This document shows positions 2,509 through 47,932 of a DNA stretch of 64,000 nt, piece after piece. How positions within the stretch are numbered: position 1 is the stretch's first letter; every line of letters starts with the position of its first letter. Source of the stretch: Patescibacteria group bacterium (lineage in GTDB: Bacteria > Patescibacteriota > Minisyncoccia > UBA9983); the NCBI GenBank assembly GCA_018895015.1, contig JAHIOX010000003.1, positions 962 to 64,961 of the forward strand, read 5' to 3'. A program made the position numbers and the translations under genes. A model generated the notes under the pieces. That model searched no databases, was not told the origin of the DNA, and saw nothing but the letters and a program-made list of their open reading frames with translations.

Positions 2509-3911
2509 ATTTAAAAATTTACAATACGCTTGCGCGCTCAAAAGAAAAATTTAAGCCGCTGGGGCCTGGTAAAATAAAATTTTACCAGTGCGGCCCGACG
2601 GTTTATTGGACGCAGCATATCGGCAATATGCGCGCGGTTGTATGCGCCGATTTTATAATTAGAACATTAAAATATCTTGGTTATGACATTAAATTCGTCC
2701 GCAATTACACGGATGTCGGCCATCTTACAAGCGACGAGGACGAAGGTGAAGATAAAATGGAAAAAGCGGCTAAGCGGGAAAAATTAAGCCCGCGAGAAAT
2801 TGCTGAAAAATACATCAAAATTTACGAAAATGATACGAGGGCGTTAAACATTATTGAGCCGTCTGAAAAACCGAAAGCAAGCGAGCATATCCAGGAAATG
2901 ATAGAAATGATAGAAATTTTAATGGATAAAGAATACGCTTATAAAACGGATTTGGCCGTGTATTTTGACGTTTCAAAAGCAAAAGATTATACGAAATTGT
3001 CAAAGCAAACTTTGGAAGAAATGTCCGTTGGCGCCGGCAAGGGCGAGGTGGCGGACGCGGAAAAGCGCGACCCGGCTGATTTTGCACTTTGGTTTTTCAG
3101 AAAAGGAAAGCACGAAAAGGCATTGCAATACTGGCCTTCCCCGTGGGGCGACGGCTTTCCTGGTTGGCATATTGAATGCTCCGCGATGGCTAAAAAATAT
3201 TTGGGCGCGACAATGGATATTCACATGGGCGGAGTTGAACACATTTCTATTCATCACACGAACGAAATCGCGCAGAGCGAATCCGCGAATAACGCCCCGC
3301 TTGCCAATTATTGGATTCACAACGAGCACTTGGTCGTGGACGGAAGAAAAATGGCAAAGTCGGAAGGCACAGGCTACAGCCTGGAAGAAATAAAAGAAAA
3401 AAATTTTAGCCCCGTAGCTTTAAGATATTTTTTCACGCAGGCGCATTATCGCTCAAAGCAAAATTTCACATGGGAAGCGATGGAGTCCGCGCGAAACGGA
3501 TTGAAGCATTTATATAATCAAGTTAGAATTCTCCACTTGGACACTGGATGTCCAAGTGGACATCCAGTGTCCGTTAACGAAGAATACAAAAATAAATTTA
3601 TTGAAAAAATCAGCGACGATTTCAATATTCCGCAGGCGCTCGCAGTGGCGCAAGAATTATTAAAAGCGGATTTGCCGGACAAAGACAAACTGGCGACTAT
3701 TTTGGATTTTGACAAAGTTTTTGGCTTGAAACTCGCCGATGCAATGGCATTTGCGGAGGCGCCTAAAGAGGTCGTTGAGTTGGCAAAAAAGCGCGAGGCG
3801 ATGAGAAAAGAAAACAAATGGGCCGAGGCGGACATTGTCCGCGAGCAAATAAAAAACCTCGGATATGAGATTGAGGACGCGGGAAAAGGGTATGTTCTCA
3901 AAAAAATCTGA
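2499..3911 (+). CDS. cysS: cysteinyl-tRNA synthetase
   Basis: CGPTVY...HIGN (HIGH), WHIECS zinc site, KMAKSEG (KMSKS). Confidence 0.95.
   Translation: MVLDLKIYNTLARSKEKFKPLGPGKIKFYQCGPTVYWTQHIGNMRAVVCADFIIRTLKYLGYDIKFVRNYTDVGHLTSDEDEGEDKMEKAAKREKLSPREIAEKYIKIYENDTRALNIIEPSEKPKASEHIQEMIEMIEILMDKEYAYKTDLAVYFDVSKAKDYTKLSKQTLEEMSVGAGKGEVADAEKRDPADFALWFFRKGKHEKALQYWPSPWGDGFPGWHIECSAMAKKYLGATMDIHMGGVEHISIHHTNEIAQSESANNAPLANYWIHNEHLVVDGRKMAKSEGTGYSLEEIKEKNFSPVALRYFFTQAHYRSKQNFTWEAMESARNGLKHLYNQVRILHLDTGCPSGHPVSVNEEYKNKFIEKISDDFNIPQALAVAQELLKADLPDKDKLATILDFDKVFGLKLADAMAFAEAPKEVVELAKKREAMRKENKWAEADIVREQIKNLGYEIEDAGKGYVLKKI
3537..3572. repeat. 36-bp compound palindromic element in frame inside cysS (TTGGACACTGGATGTCCAAGTGGACATCCAGTGTCC), encoding LDTGCPSGHPVS
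   Basis: two inverted 17-bp units TGGACA-N5-TGTCCA; related copies in alaS, mnmA, leuS. Confidence 0.7.
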
Positions 3912-3936
3912 TATGGTATTATTATAGAGTTAAATT

Positions 3937-5298: not shown

Positions 5299-5948
5299 TG
5301 AACAATAATTTTGAAAAATTAATTGAGTATTTTTTGAAATTTCCAGGAATAGGGCCAAGGCAGGCAAAAAGATTCGCCCTTTTTTTGGCCGGAGAGGACA
5401 AAAAATTCGTTGCGGATCTTGGACAGCTTATTTCAAAAATAAAGGAAAGCGTAAGGCAATGCCCGAGCTGTTATAGATTTTACGGTTCTGTTTCTGGCGG
5501 GTCAAGCCAATGCGGCATATGCTCAAATTTAAATCGCGATAATTCCATTTTGCTTGTTGTTGAAAAAGACGCTGATTTGCAAAACATTGAGAAAAGCGAA
5601 GTTTATAACGGAAGATATTTTGTGCTTGGCGGAACAATTCCTTTGGCTAACGGTTCCGCCAAAGGCGGAACCGGCGGGTTAAGATTCAGAGAACTTTTTG
5701 AGAAAGTAAAAGTGCTTCTGCAAAGCTCAACGCGAGAAGCAAAACATTTAGAAGTTATTTTGGCTCTAAGCGCCACGATTGAAGGAGAAAATACGTCTCG
5801 TTACGCGGAAAAAATTCTGGAGCCCCTTTTGTCCAAAGGCGGGCAAGAAATAAAAATAACCCGACTTGGGCGCGGGCTTTCTACGGGCACAGAGTTGGAA
5901 TACAGCGATAGCGCTACAATTGCTAACTCTTTACGCTCGCGATGCTGA
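5298..5948 (+). CDS. recR: recombination protein RecR
   Basis: FPGIGPRQAKRFAFFL HhH motif, C4 zinc finger, Toprim; TAATG overlap with dnaB stop. Confidence 0.95.
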   Translation: MNNNFEKLIEYFLKFPGIGPRQAKRFALFLAGEDKKFVADLGQLISKIKESVRQCPSCYRFYGSVSGGSSQCGICSNLNRDNSILLVVEKDADLQNIEKSEVYNGRYFVLGGTIPLANGSAKGGTGGLRFRELFEKVKVLLQSSTREAKHLEVILALSATIEGENTSRYAEKILEPLLSKGGQEIKITRLGRGLSTGTELEYSDSATIANSLRSRC

Positions 5949-6291
5949 TTTTTGTGTATGGCTGGCGGTGGCCTTTTTTCTTGCGATAACGGGTTTTAGA
6001 TTTATATCTTAAAACTGTAATTTTTTTATCTCTTCCTTCTTCCTCAATTTTTGCCTCGACTATCGCGCCGTCCACAAACGGTTTGCCAACATGGATATCT
6101 TTATCGCCGGCGACAAGGAGAATATTATCAAATTTTAAAATTTCGCCCGCCTTGGTGTTTTTTATTTTTTCCACCTTTAACACGTCTCCGGCTTTAACTA
6201 TGTATTGTTTGCCCCCGGTTTGAATTACGGCAATTTTATCCGCCGCCGAGGCGGATTCCGCCTTCTTTTTTGTCGTTTTTACTGTTGTCAT
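5923..6291 (-). CDS. rplU: 50S ribosomal protein L21 (with N-terminal extension)
   Basis: AVIQTGGKQYIVKAGD motif; basic C-terminus. Confidence 0.9.
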   Translation of the reverse strand: MTTVKTTKKKAESASAADKIAVIQTGGKQYIVKAGDVLKVEKIKNTKAGEILKFDNILLVAGDKDIHVGKPFVDGAIVEAKIEEEGRDKKITVLRYKSKTRYRKKKGHRQPYTKISIASVKS

Positions 6292-6377
6292 AATGATTAT
6301 TATTCTATATCATATCTCGCTTAATTTCAAGCCTCTTGCGTCAACTTACATATTCTTTTTAATAATTCTAATATTTA

Positions 6378-6405
6378 CCACTTATCAGCGATAGCAAGTA
6401 AGTGG
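6378..6405. repeat. hairpin-forming intergenic repeat CCACTTATCAGCGATAGCAAGTAAGTGG (family copy 1)
   Basis: 7-bp stem CCACTTA/TAAGTGG with 13-nt loop; near-identical copies at 7019-7055 and 51248-51280. Confidence 0.5.
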
Positions 6406-6424
6406 CAGATGTAGTTTAGTTAAA

Positions 6425-6979
6425 TTATTGCAGGCTGAAATGATTTTTTAAATGCAACTCATTGTCAATTGAATCAGCGATAATCATCCTAACAAATTTT
6501 CTTATATCGTAAAATTCTATTAAATAATCTATTTCATCTTTGCAATCATATGGATGAACAAAAACACTTTTTTGAAATTCGTAAAATCCCATTTGCTTCA
6601 AATGAAATCGCAGACTTTCTCTTATCTTTTTTCTTTTTTCGGGAATATCAAAAAGCACAACGCGCCATTTTTTGTCCCATTTTTGCGGTTTCTCAATTCG
6701 CAGATTTTCCAAATCATAGGTAAGCGCCTTTTGCTTTCCGTTATCTGTTAACACTATTGTTATAGTTCCATCTAGATTTTGTTTTTCGGCAACCAATTTT
6801 GATTCATATAAGCGTTTAATCGCTCTCTTAAGCGCCCGCGCCTCAATTTCTTTCCATTCTTTGCCAATGCTTTTCAAAATCTGAAAATATGTTTTTGGAG
6901 ATCTTGTCAGCCCTAAAGTCAAGCCGCCTAAAAGCAGAAGCAATATTTTTTGTTGTATTTCGCCGTGTCCTCGCGACAT
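6425..6979 (-). CDS. putative wHTH + Cas2-fold (PaaX-like) regulator
   Basis: C-terminal WRVVLFDIPE...RKKIRESLRFHL...GFYEFQKSVFV resembles the Cas2/PaaX fold; flanked by hairpin repeats on both sides. Confidence 0.4.
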   Translation of the reverse strand: MSRGHGEIQQKILLLLLGGLTLGLTRSPKTYFQILKSIGKEWKEIEARALKRAIKRLYESKLVAEKQNLDGTITIVLTDNGKQKALTYDLENLRIEKPQKWDKKWRVVLFDIPEKRKKIRESLRFHLKQMGFYEFQKSVFVHPYDCKDEIDYLIEFYDIRKFVRMIIADSIDNELHLKNHFSLQ

Positions 6980-7018
6980 AATTTTATTTTATGATACCTT
7001 TTTAAAAATTACCATATA

Positions 7019-7055
7019 CCAGCGATAGCAAGTAAGTGGTAAGCAAGTAAGTGGT
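7019..7055. repeat. hairpin-repeat family copy 2 with internal duplication of GCAAGTAAGTGG
   Basis: ACCAGCGATAGCAAGTAAGTGGTAAGCAAGTAAGTGG. Confidence 0.5.
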
Positions 7056-7076
7056 AAATTGGCAAATTATCGATTC

Positions 7077-8045: not shown

Positions 8046-8110
8046 ACTTTATTTTATCATAAAAAAAGGCCGCCCCAAAGAAAAGGGACGGCTGATTAAA
8101 ACGGAGATAA

Positions 8111-8776: not shown

Positions 8777-8870
8777 TCGTGATAAGGAACCATAATCCTT
8801 TGTTTAGTATCATTTTTAATCCCCCTTTTTTATTTCAATTTCAAGATTCAAATTTTCTAAAATAAGTATA

Positions 8871-9950: not shown

Positions 9951-9973
9951 ATATTTTAAAGTATAACAGTTTT

Positions 9974-13680: not shown

Positions 13681-13684
13681 GTTT

Positions 13685-28616: not shown

Positions 28617-28624
28617 TATTTATA

Positions 28625-28652
28625 ATTATAACAACTTTAAAAATTATTGCAA
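28625..28652 (-). promoter_or_regulatory. candidate sigma70 promoter for grpE (TTGCAA-16-TGtTATAAT, 8 nt to ATG; leaderless)
   Basis: hexamers and extended -10 seen directly. Confidence 0.4.
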
Positions 28653-28663
28653 GAGTTTTTTTG

Positions 28664-28886
28664 TAAAATAAATGCCCCCTTACGTCACAACGTAAGGGGG
28701 CGAAAGCAAGGATTTTTCCCGCGCTATTCTGACTTAACCGTTTCAAAAAGTTAGCCTATTGGTTCTACCCAATAGCTGGAAACTAGCTAGAAACGGTTCG
28801 GTCAGGTAACGCCCTATCTCTTTCTTGCTTTTTCCCCACCTTGCCGAAAAAGGGGAACAAAAGCAGATAGGAAGGGACTTTTTTTA
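28664..28886. ncRNA. highly structured non-coding region (three long hairpins; terminator-like ends on both strands), strand and identity undetermined
   Basis: no ORF; CCCCCTTACG-TCACAA-CGTAAGGGGG hairpin, about 110-nt hairpin CCTGACCGAACCGTTTC...GAAACGGTTAAGTCAG, GC hairpin + T7 at 28811-28885. Confidence 0.3.
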
Positions 28887-28921
28887 ATTCTAAAATAAGT
28901 CTAGCATATTCATCGGAAATG

Positions 28922-29122
28922 TCAAGTTCTTTTTACTGGATGGTAAAATATAGCCACCGTGCAGTTGAGAAAATCCCTCCCTGCTATGTTGGTCCCGAAA
29001 ACATTACTGACGTGACGGCTAACGATTACTACTGGGTTTTTCTCGAGCCACTTGTTTATCTCTTCCTCTAATTCATCGAATTCGTTTGCTACGCACCGTG
29101 TGAAGATTTTGACCTTTTCCAT
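28922..29122 (-). CDS. small hypothetical protein (66 aa)
   Basis: GGAGGAAAAAGCA-ATG SD. Confidence 0.5.
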   Translation of the reverse strand: MEKVKIFTRCVANEFDELEEEINKWLEKNPVVIVSRHVSNVFGTNIAGRDFLNCTVAIFYHPVKRT

Positions 29123-29261
29123 TGCTTTTTCCTCCGGTTTTTTTATTTTATTTTTTCAAAGTTCCACTTCCCTTAAATTAATCTGGTGTCAGACAAACTT
29201 AAGGGAAATGAGAAGCATTTTGTTATTAGGTAGCTTCTCTTTAACCTTTACGATATCTATT

Positions 29262-29579
29262 TTATTCGCCTCCTTTCTTTTGCAGCCACTCGTCTACAAG
29301 TTTTTTGTCCCCTCTTTCCAATATCAGCTCCGGTTTGTCGTGAGCATATTTATGCACTAACGAGATATAATCCGGTTTATATTTGCTGATTATGGAAGCG
29401 ACGACCTTTCTTGCCTTTCGGCGGCTACAATCCTTGATTACTCTTGTATATCTTTTTAGCTCCGAGCCGCGTTTTGCAAATGACAGTATAAACGCGAAAT
29501 CAAAGCACTCCTTGCGCTGCGATTCCGGTTTGGCAATGCCAGGGTTCGCAGCCACACGTTTACCAAGGATCTTATACAT
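29262..29579 (-). CDS. basic hypothetical protein (105 aa)
   Basis: AAAAGGAGA SD before ATG. Confidence 0.45.
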   Translation of the reverse strand: MYKILGKRVAANPGIAKPESQRKECFDFAFILSFAKRGSELKRYTRVIKDCSRRKARKVVASIISKYKPDYISLVHKYAHDKPELILERGDKKLVDEWLQKKGGE

Positions 29580-29740
29580 TCCATTCTCCTTTTCAGGTTC
29601 GATTTGTATTTTTTAATTCTGACATAAGTTTAGCACACCCGCTGAAAATGTCAATAGCGCGATTTACGCGCTTGCAATTCAATCAAAAAAAAGTATAATG
29701 GCCAAAGAAAGCGTTAAAAAATGCGATGGGAGGGTTAATT

Positions 29741-29932
29741 ATGGCAAGCGATGTCTTTATTTCAGATGACCCGGTTATCTCCGGCAAATTAACAAAACTT
29801 GGGTATTCGTTTTCCACGGCTGTCGCCCATGGCAATAGAGATCTTGCTAATGCCATTCTAGTAGAGGCCGAAAAAATCAAAAGAAAATACAGGATAGAAA
29901 AATCTAAGTTAAAATTAGTAAAAAAACCATAA
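29741..29932 (+). CDS. small hypothetical protein (63 aa from ATG with GGGAGGG SD)
   Basis: SD-ATG spacing; track ORF 29726 starts 5 codons earlier. Confidence 0.45.
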   Translation: MASDVFISDDPVISGKLTKLGYSFSTAVAHGNRDLANAILVEAEKIKRKYRIEKSKLKLVKKP

Positions 29933-29946
29933 AGGAGGTGAAGGCC

Positions 29947-30030
29947 ATGCTTAAATTTCCCGCAAGGAAAAACAGGTTGCGACTCATTGGCACAACGGCA
30001 ATGAATTGCGGCAGCGACTCTGGTTGCTGA
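29947..30030 (+). CDS. 27-aa peptide MLKFPARKNRLRLIGTTAMNCGSDSGC
   Basis: perfect AAAGGAGGTGAAGG SD 6 nt upstream; terminator follows. Confidence 0.3.
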   Translation: MLKFPARKNRLRLIGTTAMNCGSDSGC

Positions 30031-30036
30031 CTTTGG

Positions 30037-30090
30037 CCCGGTGGAGGATCTTTCTAATGATTCTCCACCGGGTCTTATTTATTTTTATTT
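30037..30090 (+). terminator. rho-independent terminator (CCCGGTGGAG...CTCCACCGGG + T-rich)
   Basis: 10-bp GC stem followed by TCTTATTTATTTTTATTT. Confidence 0.65.
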
Positions 30091-30096
30091 GTCAGC

Positions 30097-30138
30097 ATGT
30101 CAACCTGCCACGTCGACATGCCACGTTGACATGGCATG
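30097..30138. repeat. intergenic compound palindrome CATGTCAAC-CTGCCACGTCGAC-ATGCCAC-GTTGACATG sharing the CTGCCAC/GTCGAC motif of the mnmA tandem repeat
   Basis: direct sequence comparison. Confidence 0.5.
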
Positions 30139-30290
30139 CCAATCCAAAATGGTCGCGATTTTCAGCGATCGCACGATTTCGTGGCCTTTTTTAAATTTAT
30201 CAAAATAAAAAAACCCGCTGGCTGGCTGAATAAATCAGTTAACCCGCGGGCTTAAATTCACCTCCTTTTATTTTTTTGTCTCTTTGGTGA

Positions 30291-30476
30291 CTACTCCTCG
30301 TCCCAGCCACGGGCACATACTTTGCGAAACGCAACGCAATCACAGGGGCAATGGTTCTGCAAGAAGTCCTCCCAAGGAAGATTTTCTTGGTCCTTTTCCT
30401 TCAGTGCCTCGTCATGCAAAGGGCACAGACTGTCTTTTGTTGTCAGTATGTTCATCAGAACTCTCCTGTCCTCCAC
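30291..30476 (-). CDS. small Cys/His-rich hypothetical protein (likely starts at MNILTT with GGAGAG SD)
   Basis: ORF with SD for internal ATG; weak. Confidence 0.3.
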   Translation of the reverse strand: MEDRRVLMNILTTKDSLCPLHDEALKEKDQENLPWEDFLQNHCPCDCVAFRKVCARGWDEE

Positions 30477-30746
30477 CTTCCTTTTATAACTACCAAAGAT
30501 AGCTTGCTAAAAGGTAAGGATTTACAAGGCCAAACTCATATAAAATCAATGTGCTTTCTTTATAATCTGCTAAAATATTAGCACATTTAATACCTATTTG
30601 TCAAGCATTTTTGTGTATTTCCAAAATATGGCTCAAAATAAGACGATATTAGGCAATAAACGCTGAACAAAATATCAAACAAAAAATTAAATCTAAAATG
30701 GTTGCGATTTTCAGCGATAGCATTTTTTTATGACCTTTTGTTTTTT

Positions 30747-31160
30747 TTATTTATTAAAATACTTTTTAAAAGCCAGGTATTCTTCTTTGCCGAAAAATTC
30801 CAAGGGTTTGAATTTGTATTTTTCCGGATTAATCCAGGCATAACTTGAGTGTTCTCGAGAAAGTCTAATCGCCATGGACATTAAATCGGCTTCATAAACA
30901 ATAATAAATACTTTAAAATCTTTAAAAAATCTTCGGTAATAAAAAGCAGGTTTGTTTAACTTATATTTAATGTTCCCCAATTCTTCTTTTATTTCTCTTC
31001 CTAAAATCTTCTCAAGCGCAATGTCTTTGTCTGATTCTCTTATCCTTCCACCGGGCAAATCAAGCTTATCTCCAGATTCATTCTTTAAAAATAAAAATTC
31101 TTTTTCTTTTTTCAGAAGAACCTTGATTGATATTTGATAAACGGCATTTTGCTCATCCAT
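30747..31160 (-). CDS. NUDIX hydrolase
   Basis: Nudix box GGRIRESDKDIALEKILGREIKEELG. Confidence 0.85.
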   Translation of the reverse strand: MDEQNAVYQISIKVLLKKEKEFLFLKNESGDKLDLPGGRIRESDKDIALEKILGREIKEELGNIKYKLNKPAFYYRRFFKDFKVFIIVYEADLMSMAIRLSREHSSYAWINPEKYKFKPLEFFGKEEYLAFKKYFNK

Positions 31161-31217
31161 ACATAAATTATAATTTATTTATAATTTTTTGCAAAATAAA
31201 AAAACCATTAAAACGAA

Positions 31218-31253
31218 GAAATAAAAAACCCGCAAGCTCATCAAGCTTGCGGG
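31218..31253 (-). terminator. rho-independent terminator (CCCGCAAGCT-CATCA-AGCTTGCGGG + U-run on minus strand)
   Basis: 10-bp stem, T7 tract. Confidence 0.6.
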
Positions 31254-31300
31254 TTAAATTTTATCACCCCCTTAATTAAATTTACTTCACACTTTCTTTC

Positions 31301-31672
31301 TCAATCCTCGGATCCCCTTTCTTTTTCTAAGTTTTTTTGCGCTCTTTCATGCGCTAAGGCAGTAAGGTTTTTGAATAAATGCTCACAAATTTTTTTCTTT
31401 GTCAGCTCAATGCCATAATCTCTGCCGGCAAGAAAAACTTTTGTGAGCAATGTTTCAAGCTCATCTCTTGTCTTATCAATATAAAACAGAGATTGAACTA
31501 ATCCTGATTCTGGCTTATCGCCAGATTCGTGCTTTAAAAAAGACAGCACGTTTACATCCTGCAAAAGTTTCCTTGCATCCTCATCATTTTCTGCATCAAT
31601 GACAAACACAGAAATTTCGCCATTCTCTTCTGTGGCCACAAAACTAATCTCCATATCCATCTCCTTTCCCAC
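31301..31672 (-). CDS. acidic hypothetical protein (123 aa)
   Basis: GGAAAGGAG SD before ATG; terminator downstream. Confidence 0.45.
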   Translation of the reverse strand: MGKEMDMEISFVATEENGEISVFVIDAENDEDARKLLQDVNVLSFLKHESGDKPESGLVQSLFYIDKTRDELETLLTKVFLAGRDYGIELTKKKICEHLFKNLTALAHERAQKNLEKERGSED

Positions 31673-31936
31673 GGCTTGCCTTTCGGTTCAAGACTTATAA
31701 GGGGTATTCTTTAATATATTTTTAAGTCAAGGAACTTTCAAAGAACTTTTTTTATTTTCTTGCAAAATTATACACCCTTTGTTTAATTTTGTCAATAGCA
31801 CGATGCTTGACTTTTTTTGGGATATACGCTCCTGAGCCAAAATGCGCACGCAACTCATGGTAAAAAAGGCGCACGGCCCGGAGAAACAAAAAATTTCTCC
31901 GGGCCATATTTATTTTAAATTTGTAAAACAAAAAAC

Positions 31937-31972
31937 AACACACAAATCGCGCTATAGCGCGATTTGTGTGTT
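31937..31972. repeat. perfect 36-bp palindrome AACACACAAATCGCGCTA|TAGCGCGATTTGTGTGTT with no spacer
   Basis: 18/18 complementary arms; candidate operator or cruciform. Confidence 0.5.
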
Positions 31973-32006
31973 GGTGCTAAAATAATCAAAATAAAAAATG
32001 CTCGCG

Positions 32007-32053
32007 GTCTGACCGGAAAAGCAGATGTGCAGCACTCGGTGCTGCACATCTGC
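32007..32053 (-). terminator. terminator hairpin GCAGATGTGCAGCAC-TCG-GTGCTGCACATCTGC
   Basis: 15-bp perfect stem followed by UUUUCC on minus strand. Confidence 0.55.
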
Positions 32054-32082
32054 GATATTTCTATTCTCTATAAAAAAGCCTA

Positions 32083-32307
32083 TTAAACCTGCGTGGCCGA
32101 TGATTGGCCTTTTGCTTTGATAGCCGTGATTAAAACATAAATAGCGGACAAGCCGACAAGAATATAAACTATGCGGGCTAAAATAGATGCGGCGCCGAAA
32201 ATCGCGGCAACTAAATCAAAGCTTAGCAAACCGACCAATCCCCAATTCAAACCTCCAACAACAAGAATAATAATGGCTACCCAATCAAGAATATTTAATT
32301 TCTCCAT
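32083..32307 (-). CDS. DUF378-family small membrane protein
   Basis: LDWVAIIILVVGGLNWGLVGL...FDLVAAIFG signature. Confidence 0.7.
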   Translation of the reverse strand: MEKLNILDWVAIIILVVGGLNWGLVGLLSFDLVAAIFGAASILARIVYILVGLSAIYVLITAIKAKGQSSATQV

Positions 32308-32372
32308 AAAATTTTATAAAAAAACAAGTAATAACAAATTCGACCTTTATGCTTTTATTATACCACAATATT

Positions 32373-32801
32373 TTATCTCTTTTTCCACTGCGGCGCTTTT
32401 CGCGCTTTTTTGAGGCCGAACTTGCGGCGTTCCTTCATTCTTGGATCTCTTGTCAAAAGCCCGGCTTTTTTTAAAGAGTCTTTTAATTCCAAATCCGCTT
32501 TTACCAAAGCGCGGCTGATTCCGTGGCGGAGCGCCTCCGCTTGCGAATGAATGCCGCCGCCGTTAATTTTTACGGAAACTTTAAATTTTTTTGTTTTTGC
32601 TTTTTTCAGCGCTTCGTGAATTATATGCATTAATTCTTGGGTTGGGAAATAATCTTCCGCGTTTTTGTCATTGACCTTAATTTCCGATTTCACGCTTGTA
32701 AAAAGCCTCACTCTCGCCACTGAAGTTTTTCTTCTGCCAACGGCTTCAAAATATTTTGCGGCTTGCTTTGCGGTTGTTTTTTTTGTTTTAATGTCTTCCA
32801 T
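32373..32801 (-). CDS. rpsI: 30S ribosomal protein S9
   Basis: GGGIHSQAEALRHGISRAL ... LTRDPRMKERRKFGLKKARKAPQWKKR. Confidence 0.95.
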   Translation of the reverse strand: MEDIKTKKTTAKQAAKYFEAVGRRKTSVARVRLFTSVKSEIKVNDKNAEDYFPTQELMHIIHEALKKAKTKKFKVSVKINGGGIHSQAEALRHGISRALVKADLELKDSLKKAGLLTRDPRMKERRKFGLKKARKAPQWKKR

Positions 32802-35953: not shown

Positions 35954-35955
35954 AA

Positions 35956-36301: not shown

Positions 36302-36343
36302 CTTTGCTTCGTTTAAAAGTATATCAAATTAACAATAGAAATG

Positions 36344-38126: not shown

Positions 38127-38128
38127 AT

Positions 38129-39313
38129 TTATAAAATTTTATTGGCAAAAATTGCTTCCATCATTAAAAAAATATCTTTGCCCGCCTGCCCCGCCTTTGG
38201 CGGGGCAGGCGGATTAAAATAATGCGCGATTCCTTCCGGCATAATTTTATTAACGATAAACGGCTTGCCTAAAATGGTAAATTCCGCGGAAAAATCCTCC
38301 TCGGCGCATTTTATAAATTCCTTGCTTACAGGATCGTCGCCGGCCAGAAAAACATTCTGCGGAAGAGGCTTGTTTTCAAAAATAATTTTCAGCGCTTTGT
38401 AAAAAAAATCGCGCCATTCTTTTTTTGCCTTTTCAATTATTAAAGATATTTTTTGCGAGTTGCTTTCATCCGCGTGGCCGTTTAGATATGTCTGCAGCAT
38501 TGATTCCGCCTCATCCGGAAAAGCGTTAAATTCAGACGCTATTTTTCTTAACAGAAAATTTCGTCCGCGCGAAAAAGAAACTGTTTCTTCCAGATTGTCA
38601 TTGCGTATTAGTGAAAGTTCAGTAACTTCTCCGCCTATATCAATAAGAATCAGTCCGTCGCTGGTGTTAATTATGCCGTTTAAAATTTTAAAAGCCACCA
38701 TGGGAAAAGTTTTAAATTGCAAAGATATGTCGCCAAAATTTTTCAAGACTTCTTCTTCTATTTCATCTTTAACTTCCTTTACCCCTAAGCTCATGTGAAT
38801 ATACGCTTTAATTTTTTTGGCGGTTTTATTTATCGGGGAATTCGTATGGTAGCCGTTAAGTTCGGTTTTTAAAATTTCGTGTTCAATAAATTCGGGCTCG
38901 CCGCGCAATGGTTCCAATTTGGACGACCATTTCTTTTTAAAAAACTTTTCTTCGTCCATCATTAATTTTTCAAAAAAATCCTCCGTAATTTTAAAAGGCT
39001 TTTCTTTTTCAATGCTTATTATTTTTGTCTGCGATATGAACCATGGAGAAAAAAATACGCACAAGGCGGCATCAGGCCCTTTTGGAAAATCTTTGAGAAG
39101 CTGCCCAAGATTTTTTTTAAGAGCGCTGCGCGCGCAGCGCCAAAACGCGTCAAAATCAACATCCAAAAGAAAATTAACCGGCACTCTTCCCGAAGAGATT
39201 ATTTCAGGCTTGCCTTCTTTATCTTGCTTTATCAGCATTCCGCCGACAGAAGCGCTCGCCATGTCAAACACCGCGATCACTCTTTGTTTTTTCTTTTCGC
39301 CAAAAAGACTCAT
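38129..39313 (-). CDS. actin-like ATPase domain protein (FtsA/PilM superfamily, tentative)
   Basis: VIAVFDMASASVGG and LILIDIGGEVTELSLI phosphate-binding-like motifs. Confidence 0.4.
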   Translation of the reverse strand: MSLFGEKKKQRVIAVFDMASASVGGMLIKQDKEGKPEIISSGRVPVNFLLDVDFDAFWRCARSALKKNLGQLLKDFPKGPDAALCVFFSPWFISQTKIISIEKEKPFKITEDFFEKLMMDEEKFFKKKWSSKLEPLRGEPEFIEHEILKTELNGYHTNSPINKTAKKIKAYIHMSLGVKEVKDEIEEEVLKNFGDISLQFKTFPMVAFKILNGIINTSDGLILIDIGGEVTELSLIRNDNLEETVSFSRGRNFLLRKIASEFNAFPDEAESMLQTYLNGHADESNSQKISLIIEKAKKEWRDFFYKALKIIFENKPLPQNVFLAGDDPVSKEFIKCAEEDFSAEFTILGKPFIVNKIMPEGIAHYFNPPAPPKAGQAGKDIFLMMEAIFANKIL

Positions 39314-39338
39314 TGAAAATATTATAGCATAAAATAAT

Positions 39339-41120
39339 TTACTCCAACACCGCCTTGATGCGCCGGATGCCAGCCGCGCTTGCCTCTTCTTTTAGAATCT
39401 TAAATTTGCCAAGTTCGCCGGTTTTTTCAACATGCGGACCGCCGCAAATTTCCGCGCTGAAAGCGTGTACTGAATACACCTTTACTTTGTCTCCGTATTT
39501 TTGTTCAAAAACGCCAAGCGCTCCGGATTTTCGGGCTTCTTCCAAGCTCATTTCCTCGCAAATTACAGGGAGATTTTCCCGGATTTTTTCATTCACAATA
39601 TCTTCGACTTGCTTAATTTGCTCCGGTGTAACTTTCTGCGAATGCGAAAAATCAAAACGCAGGCGTTCCGCCGTTATATTGCTCCCTTTTTGGATAACGT
39701 GATTGCCTAAAACATCCCGCAACGCCTGATGCAAAAGATGCGTGGCAGTATGATATTTTGTGGTCTGCTCGCCGGCGTCAGCCAGCCCGCCCTTAAACAT
39801 TCCGGCCGAAGCAGTGCGTGAAAGCTCCTGATGCTTTTGAAATTCTTCTCTAAATTCTTCTCTAAACTTTTTAAACTCTTCTTCGTCCACAAGCAAACAC
39901 CTTTCTGCAAGTTCTTCTTGAATCATTTCTAGCGGGAAACCAAAAGTCTCATAAATATAAAAAGCTTTTTTTGCATCAACTCTGTTAAATTTTTTTATCT
40001 CTCGCCCGGATTCTATTTTTTGCGCTTCTCCAATTAAATTTAATTTATTCAATTCTTTTAATCCCCTTTCCAAAGTTTTTCCAAATCTTTCTTCTTCATT
40101 TTCAAGTTCATTAAAAATTTTATCTTTACTTTCCTCAACTTCAGAATAAATATCTTTATAAATTTCAATCACGGCTTTTGTGACTTCAGCGATAAAGTTT
40201 TTTTCAATTCCTAAAATTTTTCCGTGCCGAACAGCCCTTCGAATCAATTTGCGCAAAACATAACCTCTGCCTGCATTTGACGGCTCCACGCCGTCGGCAA
40301 TTATAAAAACGCTCGCCCTAATATGGTCCGCGATAATTCTTTTTGCACGCACTTGGACATCCAGTGTCCACTTGGACACTGGATGTCCAAGTGATTCAAT
40401 TTTTTCCATTATCGGCTCAAACAAATCTGTCTCGTAAACATTGTTTTTGCCCTGCATCACCATAGCAATTCTTTCCAGCCCCATCCCGGTATCAACATTT
40501 TTTTGTTTTAAGGTCTCAAATCTGCCATCAATGGTTTTGTTATATTCCATAAAAACATCGTTCCATATCTCAATTCCATTTATGAACATTTCTGTGTCCG
40601 GGCCGCACGGGCCTGTTGCGCCGGCCGGTCCCCACCAATTATCTTCCATGCCTTTATAAAAAATTTGTTCCTTTGGAATTCCGAGCGATTGCCAGATTCT
40701 CGCTGATTCATCGTCACGCGGCGCGTTTTCGTCTCCTTCAAAAACCGTTACAAACAATCGTTCCGAAGAAATCCCAAGCCATTCTTTGTTGGTTAAAAAT
40801 TCAAAACTCCATTCAATCGCCTCTTTTTTGAAATACGAGCCAAAACTCCAATTCCCGAGCATTTCAAAAAAAGTAAGATGGCTTTCGTCTCCCACCTCGT
40901 CAATATCAATAGTGCGAACGCATTTTTGCGAATTTGTCACCATGTTCCCGCCAGGATGTTTTTCACCCATTAAATAAGGCACGAGCGGATGCATTCCGGC
41001 AGTGGTAAAAAGCGCGGTCGGGTCTGTTTCAGGAGGAATCAAAGAAGCCGAAGGAATAATAGTGTGCCCTTTTGACTCCATAAACTTCAAAAATTTTTCT
41101 CGGATTTCCTTGGATGTCAT
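39339..41120 (-). CDS. alaS: alanyl-tRNA synthetase lacking the C-terminal C-Ala domain (593 aa)
   Basis: N-terminal catalytic motifs (FTTAGMHP, FFEMLGNWSFG), editing HTATHLLHQAL...CGGPHV; ends before the C-Ala domain. Confidence 0.9.
   Translation of the reverse strand: MTSKEIREKFLKFMESKGHTIIPSASLIPPETDPTALFTTAGMHPLVPYLMGEKHPGGNMVTNSQKCVRTIDIDEVGDESHLTFFEMLGNWSFGSYFKKEAIEWSFEFLTNKEWLGISSERLFVTVFEGDENAPRDDESARIWQSLGIPKEQIFYKGMEDNWWGPAGATGPCGPDTEMFINGIEIWNDVFMEYNKTIDGRFETLKQKNVDTGMGLERIAMVMQGKNNVYETDLFEPIMEKIESLGHPVSKWTLDVQVRAKRIIADHIRASVFIIADGVEPSNAGRGYVLRKLIRRAVRHGKILGIEKNFIAEVTKAVIEIYKDIYSEVEESKDKIFNELENEEERFGKTLERGLKELNKLNLIGEAQKIESGREIKKFNRVDAKKAFYIYETFGFPLEMIQEELAERCLLVDEEEFKKFREEFREEFQKHQELSRTASAGMFKGGLADAGEQTTKYHTATHLLHQALRDVLGNHVIQKGSNITAERLRFDFSHSQKVTPEQIKQVEDIVNEKIRENLPVICEEMSLEEARKSGALGVFEQKYGDKVKVYSVHAFSAEICGGPHVEKTGELGKFKILKEEASAAGIRRIKAVLE
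40349..40393. repeat. palindromic element (TTGGACATCCAGTGTCCA-CT-TGGACACTGGATGTCCA) in frame inside alaS, encoding LGHPVSKWTLDVQ
   Basis: same 17-bp units as the cysS element, in swapped order. Confidence 0.7.
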
Positions 41121-41394
41121 TAGAAATCATGATACCAAAAAAAACCTAAAATAAAAAGAACTCCGCTTGTAATTAATTGTTTTTCTCTGGGGTGGGATTA
41201 TCACTTTGATGATGGACCTTCATGGTACGTTGACGGAAAAACGATGACGATTTATATTGACGAAAGATTAGATAATAAAAAGCTAAGAGAATTTAAAAAA
41301 ATGAAATGTAAAATAAGCACGCGCGAGTGGACAGAATCTAAAATCTGATTTGTTGAGTCATCGCTCAGCTAAGCCTTGATTAAAAATTGAGTCA

Positions 41395-41416
41395 AGCCCA
41401 GCTGGGCTTTTTTATT
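41395..41416 (+). terminator. terminator hairpin AGCCCAGCTGGGCT + T6ATT after a short plus-strand ORF remnant
   Basis: GC stem + T-run. Confidence 0.4.
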
Positions 41417-41532
41417 GTTCCATATAGCTTTTTACGCCAAGGGTAACTCTTGGATATTAGATATACTTTGAGATTATACCAACTTCTAGCGATAACACGA
41501 AAATGGAATAATCTATAAAAACAGAAATTTGA

Positions 41533-42612
41533 TTATTTTATAATCCCGCCGCCTAGGAGAGTCTGGCCGTCATAAATTACCAAAGATTGGCCGGGGGTAA
41601 TCGCCCTCTGCGGTTTTATAAATTCAACGTGGCAGGTCGACGTGGCAGGTCGACGTGGCAGGTCGACTATGCGGCAGGATTGCAACGGCTGGCGGTATCG
41701 GATGCGCGCTTTTAACAGCTTGGAAACTGGATTTCCACTTGGAAATCCAGTTTCCAAGCAATCCGGCGACTTTCCCGAAATCCAATTCACATTTTTTATT
41801 TTTGCTTCTTTTTTGTAAATTTTTTTTTCATCCGCCTTGCTCGCCACAATCAAAAGATTTTTTCTTATATTTTTATACACTACATAATAAGGAACGCCGC
41901 CGCCCTTGCCAAACCCGCGCCTTTGGCCAATCGTGTAAAGCGGCAAACCATCGTGTTCGCCGATGATTTTTTCATCAGCAGTAATAATTTTCCCTTTTTT
42001 TAATTTTAAATTCTTTTTCAAAAATTCGTTATGCCCGCCCTTAAGAAAACAAATATCCTGACTTTCTTTTTTCAAATACGGCAAACGCAAATCATCCGCC
42101 ATTTTTTTTATTTCTTTTTTCATAAAATCGCCCAAAGGGAAAAGCGTCTTGCCCAAAATTTTTTGGTTTAAGTTATACAAAAAATAACTCTGGTCTTTGC
42201 TTTTATCTTTAGCAATTTTCAATTTATAATTTTCGATTTTCAATTTTTTAATATAATGTCCCGTGGCGATACGATCCGCGCCTGCCATTTTCGCCTCTTT
42301 CAAAAATTTGCTGAATTTAATAAGCTTGTTGCACACGACGCACGGATTTGGCGTCTTGCCGGCCGCATATTCCGAAATAAAATAATCAATAATCCGCTTT
42401 TTGAATTCTTCGCGCCAATCCCACACCAAAAACTTGATACCTATTTTTTTGGCTACAGCGCGCGCCGCGCGCTCCGGCTCTTTGCAGCCCGGCGCCAATC
42501 TCAAAAAAACGCCAACAACACCATAGCCTTGCTGTTTCAGCAACGAGGCGGCAACAGACGAATCCACCCCGCCTGACATCGCGACAAACGTTTTCTTTAT
42601 TGTTTTTTTCAT
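41533..42612 (-). CDS. mnmA: tRNA-specific 2-thiouridylase MnmA
   Basis: PP-loop SGGVDSS, conserved catalytic Cys, C-terminal ARIRYRQ...TPGQS. Confidence 0.9.
   Translation of the reverse strand: MKKTIKKTFVAMSGGVDSSVAASLLKQQGYGVVGVFLRLAPGCKEPERAARAVAKKIGIKFLVWDWREEFKKRIIDYFISEYAAGKTPNPCVVCNKLIKFSKFLKEAKMAGADRIATGHYIKKLKIENYKLKIAKDKSKDQSYFLYNLNQKILGKTLFPLGDFMKKEIKKMADDLRLPYLKKESQDICFLKGGHNEFLKKNLKLKKGKIITADEKIIGEHDGLPLYTIGQRRGFGKGGGVPYYVVYKNIRKNLLIVASKADEKKIYKKEAKIKNVNWISGKSPDCLETGFPSGNPVSKLLKARIRYRQPLQSCRIVDLPRRPATSTCHVEFIKPQRAITPGQSLVIYDGQTLLGGGIIK
41628..41666. repeat. 3 x 13-bp perfect tandem repeat CGTGGCAGGTCGA within mnmA (in frame)
   Basis: 39 bp = 13 codons, encoding VDLPRRPATSTCH. 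Confidence 0.7.
41720..41758. repeat. palindromic element (TGGAAACTGGATTTCCA-CT-TGGAAATCCAGTTTCCA) in frame inside mnmA, encoding LETGFPSGNPVS
   Basis: same architecture as the cysS/alaS elements with A/T substitutions. Confidence 0.7.
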
Positions 42613-42614
42613 GT

Positions 42615-43334: not shown

Positions 43335-43345
43335 ATAAAAAATGG

Positions 43346-44530: not shown

Positions 44531-45545
44531 ATTTGCCGTCCTTATTCTTTGTAAAATAATCGCGGTTTTGCAAATTTATGATAATGGTATTTTTCTTTAC
44601 GTATCTCTCTTTTGAAACAATGTCAATAATTTCTTCTTTGGTAAGCGGACCTTTTAATTTAATGATTTCTTTGATTACATCTTTTACGGCGCCGGTTTTA
44701 TACCCCCATTCTTCAAGTGCGTAAAGTCCTCTGCCAACCAAAACAAACCTGGCGTCTTTTATAAGTTCGTTATGGACGGTTGCCGAATGCGCCTGTCTGG
44801 AAAAATAATCGCTGATTTTTTCCGAAACCTCCATAAAATGCATCGGCGAACCTTGCTTTCTTAAAACCAAAAAAGCAAAATCGCGCATTCCTCTTGGGTT
44901 AACGCGCGGAGAACTAGCCAAGCCCCATTCTCCTAAAGCGTTGCTAGCTATAATTTTTGAAATATTAAGCCAGGAACGAAGTATTTCATCGCTGATTTTT
45001 CTTTTTAAATTATCTTCCGAGCGTTTTTTAAGCAAAGCGATAATTTCCTGCTCCGGGATAAGCTCGCTTTTGTTCAATTCATTATGCAAACTTCTTAAAA
45101 TAGCGTGGATTGCTTCCGCCTCGCGCTTGTCAATTGTCCAGCGATGATAAAATTCTTCGTCCTCTTTTATTTTTTCAAATTCATTGCCAAGAACCAGCAA
45201 AAAGAAAACATGATTTTTTTGTTTCGGATTATCCGCCAAATAGTCTAAAATTTCCCGCTCGGAAATAACCTTGCCTTTTTTATCCATAAGTTCTTGGATC
45301 TCGGCAAAATTGCCGCGCGCCGCTTCAAAAGAAGGATTTTGCCTGATTGAATTTAACGCAAAATTTTCTATCTGCCTCACTCGCTCTCTTGTGATGCCGT
45401 ATTTCTGGCCTATTGATTCAAGAGTTTTTCTGTCGACTTCGTTTCCAAGGCCATAACGCTGGACAACAACGTCCTTGGCCCTGTCCTTAAGGCCTGATAT
45501 AAAATTTTTTGTAAGACTATCCGGTTTAAATGTAAGCACTGTCAT
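44517..45545 (-). CDS. sigma-70 region-4-like HTH domain protein (N-terminal), function unknown
   Basis: TLESIGQKYGITRERVRQIENFALNSIR matches the sigma70_r4 HTH. Confidence 0.5.
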   Translation of the reverse strand: MTVLTFKPDSLTKNFISGLKDRAKDVVVQRYGLGNEVDRKTLESIGQKYGITRERVRQIENFALNSIRQNPSFEAARGNFAEIQELMDKKGKVISEREILDYLADNPKQKNHVFFLLVLGNEFEKIKEDEEFYHRWTIDKREAEAIHAILRSLHNELNKSELIPEQEIIALLKKRSEDNLKRKISDEILRSWLNISKIIASNALGEWGLASSPRVNPRGMRDFAFLVLRKQGSPMHFMEVSEKISDYFSRQAHSATVHNELIKDARFVLVGRGLYALEEWGYKTGAVKDVIKEIIKLKGPLTKEEIIDIVSKERYVKKNTIIINLQNRDYFTKNKDGKYVFA

Positions 45546-47932
45546 TTTATAACTATATTAATTAATTTATTCGGCACAAAAATTACCTTTTGAATTATTT
45601 GGTTTTTTGCGCTTGCCTGCCGTCCAGGCAGGTCTGTATACCTTTTAACATTTTCTCTCTTTAATGTCAAATCTTTCGCTTCATTTTCAGCGATTCCAAT
45701 TGGCGCTTCAAACCTGTCGCGCGTCTTGCCATTAATTTGCACGACAAGTTCAAACGTTTCTTCTTTTATTTTTTTCGGGTCATACTTGGGCCAAGGCTGT
45801 TCAAAAATAGAGTTTTTGTTTTTTAATTGGCTCCATAATTCTTCCGCGATATGCGGCGCGAAAGGACTTAAAAGTGTAACAAGCAACGCGTAATCCGTAA
45901 CGCGTAATTCTTTTTCTTTTTCCATCTGGTTTAACAATATCATTAAAGCGCTGATGGCAGTATTGAATTTAAAATTTTTTATGTCTTCGCCAACTTTTTT
46001 TATTGTTTTATGCAATAAAGTTTCTAAAGATTTGGACATTAAACGTCCACTTGGACATTTAATGTCCAAGTTAGTTTTTAGTTTCCAAACCTTCTCTAAA
46101 AATCTTTTCACCCCCATTATTCCTGTCGGATTCCACGGCCCGCCCTGTGAATACTCGCCCATAAAACACAAATACATTCGCACCGCGTCAACTCCGAAAT
46201 TCTTTACAAGCTCGTCAGGGTCGATCACATTCCCGCGCGACTTTGACATCTTTTGCCCGTCAGGGCCAAGAATAATGCCTTGATGCGTTAGCGCGGAAAA
46301 AGGCTCATTAAATTCTATATGCCCTAAATCTTTTAATGCCTTTGTAAAAAATCTTGAATATAAAAGATGCAAAACGGCATGTTCTGAACCTCCAACATAC
46401 ATATTAACAGGGAGCCATGATTTTATTTTTTTCGCATCAGCGAATTTGTTGCTGCTTTTAGGATCGGCGTAGCGCAAAAAATACCATGACGAGCACACAA
46501 AAGTGTCCATGGTATCGGTTTCTCTTTTTGCCGGCCCTCCGCATTTCGGGCATTTTGTTTTAATAAATTTTTCAGAATGCGCGAGTGGCGATTTTCCTTC
46601 CTCGGTCGGCAAATAATTTTTAACATTTGGCAATTTGACAGGCAAATCTTTTTCCGGAACCGGAACCTCGCCGCATTTATCGCAAAAAATTATCGGAATC
46701 GGCGCGCCCCAGTATCTTTGTCTTGAAATCAACCAGTCGCGGAGTTTATAATTTATAGTTTTTTTAGCGCCAAGTTTTTTTATCATTTCGTCTTTTGGCG
46801 CGAGTGGCGCTTTTATTATCGGTAAATTGAATTTCTTGGCAAACTCAAAATCGCGCTCATCGTAAGCCGGCACAGCCATAATCGCTCCGGTGCCGTAATG
46901 AGCCAGAACATAATCAGAAACAAAAATAGGAACTTCTTTATTAGTCGCGGGATTTATCGCCTTGACGCCTTTTAACTCAACGCCTGTTTTTTGCTTGTCT
47001 GTTTCCATTCTTTGCAAATCAGTTTTTTTCTTTGACTGTTCAATATACCCTTCAACTTCATCCAGATTTGAGATTTGAGATTTGAGATTTGAGATTATTT
47101 CGTGTTCCGGCGCAATAACGCAATAAGTACAACCCAAAATAGTGTCAATTCTTGTCGTAAAAACCTCTAAAAAGTTTTGGTCATTTGGATTTTGGGATTT
47201 GTTTGGAAATTGGAAATTGGAAATTGGAAATTGAATCAGAGTACCCTCTGATTTCCCTATCCAATTTTTTTGCATTAGCTTTGTCTTTTCAGGCCAATCC
47301 AATCCATCTAAACCTTCGAGGAGCTTATCTGCGTATTTTGTAATTCTAAAAAGCCATTGTTCAATGTCGCGCTGAACGACAATTACATCGCATCTTTCGC
47401 ATTTGCCGTCAACAACTTGTTCATTTGCCAAAACCGTATGGCATTTCGGGCACCAGTTTGCCGGCGCTTTCTTTTTATAAGCAAGCCCGTTTTTATAAAG
47501 CTGAAGAAAAATCCACTGGGTCCATTTGTAGTAATTCGGGTCGGCTGTGATTATTTCCCGCGACCAATCAAACATATTGCCCATGCTTTCAATTTGCTTG
47601 GACATTGCCTTGATGTTAGCATAAGTCCATTTTTCAGGATGTATCCCGCGCTTTATCGCGGCGTTTTCAGCCGGCAGGCCAAAGGCGTCAAAACCGATTG
47701 GCGACATAACATTAAAACCGCTCATCTTTTTGAAACGGGCGTAAACATCGGCCGGCGCGAAATTATACCAATGGCCGATATGCAAATCGCCGGAAGGATA
47801 AGGAAACATCACCAAGTGGTAAAAATTTTTCTTTCCCTTAACAGAATCTTTCGTTTTATAAATCCCAGTTTCTTTCCATTGCCTTTGCCATTTCCGTTCA
47901 ATTTTTTGAGGATTATATTCCGTCATTTTCAT
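45542..47932 (-). CDS. leuS: leucyl-tRNA synthetase
   Basis: HIGH (HIGHWYN), KMSKS, CP1 editing domain, zinc-binding Cys motifs. Confidence 0.95.
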   Translation of the reverse strand: MKMTEYNPQKIERKWQRQWKETGIYKTKDSVKGKKNFYHLVMFPYPSGDLHIGHWYNFAPADVYARFKKMSGFNVMSPIGFDAFGLPAENAAIKRGIHPEKWTYANIKAMSKQIESMGNMFDWSREIITADPNYYKWTQWIFLQLYKNGLAYKKKAPANWCPKCHTVLANEQVVDGKCERCDVIVVQRDIEQWLFRITKYADKLLEGLDGLDWPEKTKLMQKNWIGKSEGTLIQFPISNFQFPNKSQNPNDQNFLEVFTTRIDTILGCTYCVIAPEHEIISNLKSQISNLDEVEGYIEQSKKKTDLQRMETDKQKTGVELKGVKAINPATNKEVPIFVSDYVLAHYGTGAIMAVPAYDERDFEFAKKFNLPIIKAPLAPKDEMIKKLGAKKTINYKLRDWLISRQRYWGAPIPIIFCDKCGEVPVPEKDLPVKLPNVKNYLPTEEGKSPLAHSEKFIKTKCPKCGGPAKRETDTMDTFVCSSWYFLRYADPKSSNKFADAKKIKSWLPVNMYVGGSEHAVLHLLYSRFFTKALKDLGHIEFNEPFSALTHQGIILGPDGQKMSKSRGNVIDPDELVKNFGVDAVRMYLCFMGEYSQGGPWNPTGIMGVKRFLEKVWKLKTNLDIKCPSGRLMSKSLETLLHKTIKKVGEDIKNFKFNTAISALMILLNQMEKEKELRVTDYALLVTLLSPFAPHIAEELWSQLKNKNSIFEQPWPKYDPKKIKEETFELVVQINGKTRDRFEAPIGIAENEAKDLTLKRENVKRYTDLPGRQASAKNQIIQKVIFVPNKLINIVIK
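46033..46073. repeat. palindromic element (TGGACATTAAACGTCCA-CT-TGGACATTTAATGTCCA) in frame inside leuS, encoding LDIKCPSGRLMS
   Basis: same TGGACA...TGTCCA unit architecture with a TTAAA core. Confidence 0.65.
47064..47097. repeat. 4.8 x 7-bp microsatellite AGATTTG inside leuS (reads as ISNLKSQISNLD)
   Basis: perfect heptamer repeats; reading frame preserved. Confidence 0.7.
47204..47231. repeat. 4 x 7-bp microsatellite TGGAAAT inside leuS (reads as QFPISNFQFP)
   Basis: perfect heptamer repeats 100 bp from the previous array. Confidence 0.7.

Follow-up and report, generated by a model that had tools for sequence, protein, structure and literature searches.

Rickettsia palindromic elements (RPEs), which are ~100-150 bp long, are selfish palindromic repeats that sit in frame in the essential genes of a reduced genome and are translated as loop peptides. 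A second described system is that of the REP (repetitive extragenic palindromic) sequences, their doublets (REPINs) and the REP-associated tyrosine transposases (RAYTs). In-frame hairpins or REPs inside the tnpA gene itself have been reported for subclass 2.4 (PMC6006769, section 12), and atypical, untagged repeats for the TnpA-Y1 subclasses 2.6 and 3 (PMC6006769). Furthermore, in genes for repair and for tRNA synthetases, Di Nocera et al. described in-frame intragenic REPs and REP dimers (PMC3733652), and RPE-1 is termed "longer palindromic insertions" (PMC3733652). Here we analyse a 64,000-nt stretch of contig JAHIOX010000003.1 from a Patescibacteria group bacterium (hereafter, the window), which carries four copies of a 42-nt double palindrome in frame within cysS, alaS, mnmA, and leuS. 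An earlier note on this DNA had compared the behaviour of these copies to that of RPEs. The element is not an RPE: it is 42 nt long with double 17-nt hairpins, its consensus is unrelated and without sequence similarity to that of RPEs, and its host belongs to a different phylum; the analogy is functional only, and REP/REPIN-RAYT systems are closer. We read the elements as a REP/REPIN-like, non-autonomous miniature family of Patescibacteria, adapted to gene-dense genomes and with a probable RAYT-like Y1 partner, and we assign to this reading a probability of roughly 0.6. The architecture itself is that of a very small REPIN, i.e., a REP doublet. Elements of this kind are known already (REP/REPIN, intragenic REPs and, by analogy, RPEs), and the variant is without description in the searchable literature: no paper describing such elements was found in the literature on palindromes, REP or RAYT of the Candidate Phyla Radiation (CPR), as the earlier note had supposed.

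The four copies follow the plan aCT-[TGGAnA-N5-TnTCCA]-AG-[TGGAnA-N5'-TnTCCA]-AGt, and they were found in frame where they had first been noticed, with the peptides then quoted. In cysS (2499-3911, + strand, 470 aa), the copy spans 3535-3572 and reads ACT-TGGACACTGGATGTCCA-AG-TGGACATCCAGTGTCC, giving the peptide LDTGCPSGHPVS; its 3' end is eroded, with the loss of the final A of the second unit and of the AGT flank. The other three host genes lie on the - strand. The alaS copy (40350-40393, in a 593-aa gene at 39339-41120) reads CACTTGGACATCCAGTGTCCA-AG-TGGACACTGGATGTCCAAGTG on the coding strand, gives the peptide LGHPVSKWTLDVQ and has perfect 21-nt arms; it shares its units with the cysS copy, with both loops flipped and a different reading phase. 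The mnmA copy (41718-41759, in a 359-aa gene at 41533-42612) is an n=A variant with perfect 20-nt arms, GCTTGGAAACTGGATTTCCA-AG-TGGAAATCCAGTTTCCAAGC on the coding strand, and encodes LETGFPSGNPVS. Finally, the leuS copy (46030-46071, in a 796-aa gene at 45542-47932) reads ACTTGGACATTAAATGTCCA-AG-TGGACGTTTAATGTCCAAAT on the coding strand, has a single arm mismatch and encodes LDIKCPSGRLMS. Because the aCT and AGt flanks prolong the palindrome, the element measures 42 nt, or 14 codons. Its centre is AG on the coding strand in 4/4 window copies.

A chance origin of these copies is excluded. Indeed, the 17-nt unit TGGAnA-N5-TnTCCA matches six times in the window where chance would give 0.09, and the double pattern, allowing three mismatches at most, matches 10 times where 0.01 would be expected. 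Scanning the window with a looser pattern gave no additional copies beyond chance. By folding, each copy as single-stranded DNA (ssDNA) forms a hairpin of 15-20 bp whose loop has 4 nt (z = -7 to -11). In the Rfam scan of the window, one tRNA alone reached the gathering score, and the elements had no match. As a separate observation, genes converge at ~5900-6450 of the window and GC skew passes there from positive on the left to negative on the right, as at a replication terminus; on both sides of this switch, the AG of the element copies falls on the coding strand, which is the G-rich one.

The exact pattern TGGANA-N5-TNTCCA-AG-TGGANA-N5-TNTCCA specifies 22 bases, for which our own arithmetic from 4^22 gives ~0.07 matches expected by chance in 596 Gb of species-representative genomes. 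In that collection, the pattern was found at 27 loci, with only one to three exact copies per representative genome. All but one of the titled records of these loci are Patescibacteria or unclassified metagenome-assembled genomes (MAGs), and the taxa include Giovannoni-, Moran-, Nomura-, Vogel- and Zambryskibacteria, Paceibacterota, Saccharibacteria and unclassified Patescibacteria; the one atypical match is an Acidobacteriaceae MAG. A further 71 loci came from metagenomes, mostly of groundwater. There were zero matches of the exact pattern in IMG/VR viral contigs, and thus no sign of phage carriage. After the removal of duplicates and of three atypical hits (L003 and L052, with other flanks, and L061, a 19-bp tandem array), 75-77 copies were left. 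The array of L061 occupies positions 15-130, at the end of contig JAAUXU010049548.1, and repeats the 19-bp unit TGGAGAGAGTCTTTCCAAG with all three frames open; its period equals the doublet unit plus the spacer, so that it could be an amplified derivative of the element or unrelated to it.

Each copy consists of two inverted 17-nt hairpin units separated by a 2-nt spacer and enclosed by ACT and AGT. The stem of a unit has 7 bp and its loop 3 nt, because the first and last positions of the loop are Y and R. In 76 copies, the upstream flank a-A-C-T is well kept (T 100%, C 96%, A 88%), and the downstream flank A-G-T is looser (75%, 66%, and 62%). At the free stem position n, A, C and G all occur, and the four arms change in concert; in most copies, reverse-complementing the first loop gives the second. 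Over the long hairpin, 94.3% of cells are paired, with up to four pair types per column, and the covariation score is 0.402 versus 0.136 in shuffles (0/500 shuffles reach 0.402). The two small hairpins are likewise backed by covariation analysis, and G-U pairs are almost absent. From the covariation at four arms and the near absence of G-U pairs, it follows that the palindrome is maintained at the level of duplex DNA or ssDNA and not as an RNA fold.

Most of the copies from genomes and metagenomes are coding: 68/75 (~90%) lie within open reading frames (ORFs) of at least 150 aa, and all three phases are used. By Pfam, the host genes encode LepA, TopA, MetRS, SMC, UvrB, a MiaB-like enzyme, PCMT, RsmI, TsaD and TatD, as well as UvrD, GyrA, GatB, glycosyltransferases, archease, prepilin peptidase and others; across the 77 copies there are also ligA, transketolase, topoisomerases, repair helicases, GTPases and membrane proteins. 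Hosts are thus of many kinds, with no special tie to aminoacyl-tRNA synthetase (aaRS) genes, and the preference for aaRS and tRNA-modification genes that the window alone had suggested does not hold. The coding strand carries AG in 56 copies, and in the other 21 it carries CT. This orientation showed no link with replication or with the majority gene strand: 8/11 CT-oriented copies lie in genes co-oriented with their neighbours.

Among the phases, that giving LETxFPSGNxVSK is over-used and the W-containing one is under-used. As many as 43/75 copies have no stop in any phase of the strand used; this, together with a length that is a multiple of three, means that nearly any insertion keeps the frame. 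The CTAAG-first variant is open in one phase only and occurs only in that phase, and combinations of variant and phase that contain a stop are absent. Since single-phase-open variants are confined to their open phase, the copies are translated and filtered by translation. Of the idea of a selfish element tolerated only in frame, then, the translation-filtered selfish behaviour stands, and the restriction needs to be qualified, as almost any insertion keeps the frame. A function of the peptide at the protein level was also considered and rejected, because different phases give unrelated peptides.

At the level of the host proteins, the description of a dispersed palindromic family, in frame in essential genes, is borne out, and among orthologues the element is present or absent at the same site. 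In an alignment of 24 MnmA homologues, some proteins of one clade have the site filled, and others of that clade have it empty. The mnmA element is a clear net insertion of ~10 aa, both against the solved MnmA, which has a 10-residue gap there, and against empty orthologues. In an AlphaFold model of the window MnmA, the insert (residues 284-296) is unstructured and joins two strands, with pLDDT <50. In CysRS, AlaRS and LeuRS, the element lies in a variable linker that is of similar or greater length in solved orthologues. The earlier note's placement of the inserts in variable linkers therefore agrees with the loop or linker location of all four, and a clear net insertion is seen in mnmA only.

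Relatives of the window show how one site can differ. An 88%-identical syntenic relative (L102) shares the mnmA variant and adds a 9-nt partial duplication, and in a second relative at 88% (L101) the variant is another one, fully symmetric, which occupies exactly the matching nucleotide position. Of two 75% relatives, one has a single unit at this site (L100) and the other has the site empty (L099). At the leuS site, close relatives have an unrelated ~72-nt palindrome between identical flanking codons. This palindrome, AGCAAGAATGTGCTTTTT...AAAAAGCACATTCTTGCT (L102 ~2290-2365 and L100 ~2530-2605), shows compensating differences between the two relatives. Among 120 CPR transketolases, one loop is either empty or filled with many different inserts of ~12 aa, and the DNA of these inserts keeps the 17+2+17 double-palindrome plan with varying stems (TGGAAAC, TGGAAGC, AGGAAGT, and GGGAGGT). 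The nearest mnmA and transketolase alleles without the element have diverged too far (~75% at the amino acid level) to fix the insertion boundaries.

A candidate partner comes from the loci themselves. Y1_Tnp genes lie near loci taken for the transketolase comparison, according to their gene tables, and tblastn found Y1 homologues in five independent loci taken for their elements. The CPR Y1 protein has ~220 aa and conserved motifs NHYH and Y..YFN.KY. It passes the Pfam Y1_Tnp cutoff (28.5 bits against 23), and its best NCBIfam hit is REP_Tyr_transpos, the REP-associated tyrosine transposase, with an E-value of 4.5e-10 and 39.6 bits, below the cutoff of 80; some homologues carry the JGI name "RayT". 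A profile search gave at least 7593 hits, many in Parcubacteria-type MAGs, and a search of the representative library gave 18,764 clusters at E <= 1e-10.

In the inspected Y1 loci, one hairpin type recurs three times: at the 5' flank ahead of the ATG, in frame within the gene on the 5' side of the HUH motif, and at the stop codon or beyond it. This triple arrangement occurs in six loci of separate lineages: L014 (5408-6108), L106 (2650-3385), L103 (30-275), L004 (1730-2530), L107 (1283-2030) and L109 (717-1470); in L103 the gene is cut by the end of the locus, and only the 5' and internal copies are visible. The internal hairpin has a conserved position in 120/120 homologues inspected, and the hairpin sequence varies between lineages. 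Several of these hairpins resemble the element. In L107 they are doublets, TGGAAGCTAAACTTCCA-N3-TGGAAGTTTAGCTTCCA, and the contig also bears, in topA (L012), a TGGAAAC doublet. In L014, a 13-nt core, GAAACTAAGTTTC, is common to the Y1 hairpin and a doublet 460 nt away, and the internal palindrome of L109 has the family arms TTGGAGACTAAG...CTTAGTCTCCAAG. A further locus (L108) has 3' and internal copies plus a unit just upstream of the Y1 gene; nine TGGAAGC units lie there no more than 3.3 kb from the gene, the remaining 15 kb is free of them, and the 3' unit has the aACT flank. Judged by their sequences, the CPR Y1 loci have a REPtron-like arrangement, for hairpin types related to the element, and a RAYT-like Y1 transposase is probably the partner of the elements. 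The earlier suggestion of a shared nuclease recognition site fits this link to Y1 HUH genes.

At sites shared by orthologues (topA, transketolase, ligA, rsmI, gatB and an unnamed gene), the element is identical at 39-42 of 42 positions, versus 58-80% identity in the 150-nt flanks. A gradient of flank identity, which would be a sign of recent co-transfer, is weak at best (76% at 0-15 nt versus 68% at 120-240 nt). The element turns over quickly, through flips of the centre, flips of unit loops, collapse of doublets to solo units, and swaps of whole cassettes in near-clonal strains. Over 2373 nt, the identity of two loci (L020 and L080) is 99.83%, and the central AG->CT flip makes up 2/4 of their differences; in a protein cluster at >=90% identity, FPSGN (Ser) is present in three members and FPLGN (Leu) in seven. 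Unit loops can also flip singly, as in L026, where both units have CCGAG. Some sites at which a doublet is found elsewhere have a solo unit, and there are partial duplications too. Between L110 and L020, 3627/3629 positions are identical outside the site, at which the 54-nt doublet cassette of L020 is replaced in L110 by one of 48 nt whose solo hairpin, CTATCGGAGGTTCAACCTCCGATAG, is a different one.

Two further features were seen at such loci. An 89-aa gene with a GIY-YIG domain (L110 2211-2480, and the matching part of L020) lies directly upstream of the cassette-swapped transketolase gene of Saccharibacteria. In L064, and also in L076, two 146-nt repeats (L064 4232-4377 and 5399-5544) flank a stretch of ~1.2 kb that holds the element; the L064 repeats are 96.6% identical to the corresponding L076 segments.

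According to the REP/REPIN-like reading, a RAYT-like Y1 HUH tyrosine transposase would make or maintain copies on ssDNA, and the survivors would be those in tolerant surface loops of housekeeping proteins, because there is almost no intergenic space and the element has 14 codons and is mostly stop-free. Spread among related lineages at the same site would probably also proceed via short-patch homologous recombination of the conserved flanks. Several observations weigh against this reading. The 64-kb window has no Y1 gene, and none of 269 Y1 proteins has the peptide encoded by an exact TGGAnA-type internal hairpin, nor was such a Y1 locus found. The hairpins at Y1 loci are relatives only (TGGAAGC, TGGGGAC, CCGAAAC, and GAAGTC), and those of L004 are unlike the doublets of that genome. 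Copy number is low, with few copies per genome, unlike in classical REPINs. No clean high-identity empty site was found, and neither the inserted segment nor a target motif is definable; filled alleles exceed 75%-identical empty ones by ~10 aa. The ~3:1 AG bias is not tied to the majority gene strand, which is a mismatch with a strict lagging-strand rule. The strong conservation of the element at orthologous sites could mean a host function instead, and the cassette swap between L110 and L020 is explicable by homologous recombination alone, with no need for transposition.

The alternative that survives best is precisely a host-functional motif, i.e., a palindrome selected for protein binding or for DNA or RNA structure, such as an RNase III-type or regulatory mRNA hairpin, a chromosome-organising site or a replication site. 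It would account for an element that is far more conserved than the essential coding sequence around it and for the strong covariation. Coherently with it, divergent lineages share a site and keep the 17+2+17 architecture despite changed stems, and the orientation of the window copies mirrors the change in GC skew. We nevertheless consider it rather unlikely. Presence among orthologues is patchy, hosts vary between genomes, copies are found in either orientation and in every phase, the centre is free to flip between strains that are nearly identical, and an unrelated hairpin can replace the element with no other change. In addition, the near absence of G-U pairs argues against selection at the RNA level, Rfam has no match, and most CPR genomes have no copy (27 loci in the whole genome collection).

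A purely mutational process would involve no mobile element or enzyme: template switching (quasi-palindrome correction) and hairpin-mediated repair would both create palindromes in permissive loops and make them perfect. Template switching is expected to flip the centre and single loops, as in L026, and the concerted change of all four arms and the several unrelated palindrome families in identical loops point in the same direction. Such a process can explain the upkeep of symmetry once a copy is present. As a complete explanation it is quite improbable, because it does not account for the same 22 or more specified bases with an ACT flank in dozens of unrelated genes of distant CPR classes, and it leaves the clustering of cognate hairpins around Y1 genes unexplained.

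Very improbable, in our view, is a minimal MITE (a miniature transposable element with inverted repeats), made of two abutted terminal inverted repeats (TIRs) of a DDE-type insertion sequence (IS) and mobilised in trans. Inverted repeats with a 2-nt spacer recall IS circle junctions, the architecture is one of inverted repeats, and both solo and doublet forms occur. However, no target-site duplication or direct repeat flanks the element, each arm is itself a hairpin, and no full-length IS bounded by such arms was seen in ~0.7 Mb of loci; the freely covarying stem fits the recognition of a structure and not that of a TIR sequence. An artefact of assembly, adapters or chimeric reads has a negligible probability: library artefacts can yield perfect short palindromes, but these copies come from independent assemblies of many projects and assemblers, are always in frame in otherwise intact genes, exist as many covarying sequence variants and are conserved at orthologous positions.

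If the REP/REPIN-like reading is correct, translatability is how these repeats persist in genomes with almost no non-coding DNA. REP/REPIN-RAYT biology, mainly studied in proteobacteria, would extend to the CPR. The family would also offer a DNA-level explanation for many short insertions, specific to lineages, in the aminoacyl-tRNA synthetases, topoisomerases, repair proteins and metabolic enzymes of the CPR. Through their hypervariability and recombination, such segments can be a source of error in alignments, phylogenies and strain typing; conversely, the AG/CT flip and the cassette swaps could be a tractable marker of ssDNA processing and recombination in mostly uncultured organisms. More tentatively, we suggest that Patescibacteria may own an ancient REPIN-RAYT-like lineage, in which coding-compatible repeats (14 codons, symmetric and mostly stop-free in all frames) would live mainly inside essential genes and, other in-frame palindrome families included, would be a general source of the lineage-specific loop insertions of CPR housekeeping proteins.

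The count of "four of five palindromes" in the earlier note was inaccurate, as the window holds several others, some of them in frame. A GC-rich palindrome, GCCCGCCTGCCCCGCC...GGCGGGGCAGGCGG, lies in frame at 38173-38221 (ORF 38129-39313, - strand) with the peptide PPAPPKAGQAGK. Further in-frame palindromes lie at 36881, 45617 and 50918, and a second family consists of CTGCC...GGCAG 15-16-mers, one of which is in the C-terminus of leuS (PGRQA). In the part of mnmA that encodes the C-terminus, at ~41620-41660, a 13-nt unit, GACCTGCCACGTC, is present three times and gives the peptide RRPATSTCHVEF; the peptide PATSTCHVEF is common to several MnmA orthologues. A sequence related to this 13-nt unit, CAACCTGCCACGTCGACATGCCACGTTGACATG, is at 30096-30133, within a gene-poor stretch (28600-32400) that has short ORFs only, a perfect 38-bp palindrome at 31936-31973 and a hairpin with a 15-bp stem at 32021-32053, and no match to an Rfam family. 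The spacer between alaS and mnmA (41121-41532) is unusually long, 413 nt, with a terminator-like hairpin, AAGCCCAGCTGGGCTT, and a possible short ORF on the + strand.

Among the known systems, the mitochondrial palindromic elements (the double-hairpin elements, DHEs, of Allomyces and the coding palindromes of Nematomorpha, PMC6649704) resemble the CPR element in being very short and made of two hairpins, in that they can sit in coding regions or in rRNA variable regions, and in the translation of both arms. They differ in being organellar, in their unrelated sequences and in having no known associated Y1 gene. With IS200/IS605 and its palindrome-associated derivatives, the CPR system would share a Y1 HUH enzyme acting on subterminal ssDNA hairpins, and it shares the lack of a target duplication and a conserved short flank. 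Unlike in IS200/IS605, no autonomous IS with TGGAnA ends was seen, the CPR Y1 gene looks single-copy and placed among housekeeping genes, and the orientation of the element is not strictly linked to the presumed direction of replication.

REP/REPIN-RAYT systems differ from the CPR element in their 5' GT[AG]G or CGTC tag, which is absent here, where the conserved flank is (a)ACT. The CPR units are only 17 nt long with a spacer of 2-3 nt, and the hosts are Patescibacteria, whose Y1 protein of ~220 aa scores under the NCBIfam RAYT cutoff. REPs number tens to hundreds of copies, whereas the CPR element has few per genome; REPs are mostly extragenic, whereas ~90% of CPR copies are inside coding sequence. 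In both systems, however, short hairpin units are often paired in inverted orientation into a larger hairpin, the structure is conserved while the stem sequence varies, in-frame hairpins lie within the transposase gene as well as within repair and aaRS genes, and a single Y1 HUH gene has cognate hairpins at its flanks, here in other CPR genomes and for related hairpin types.

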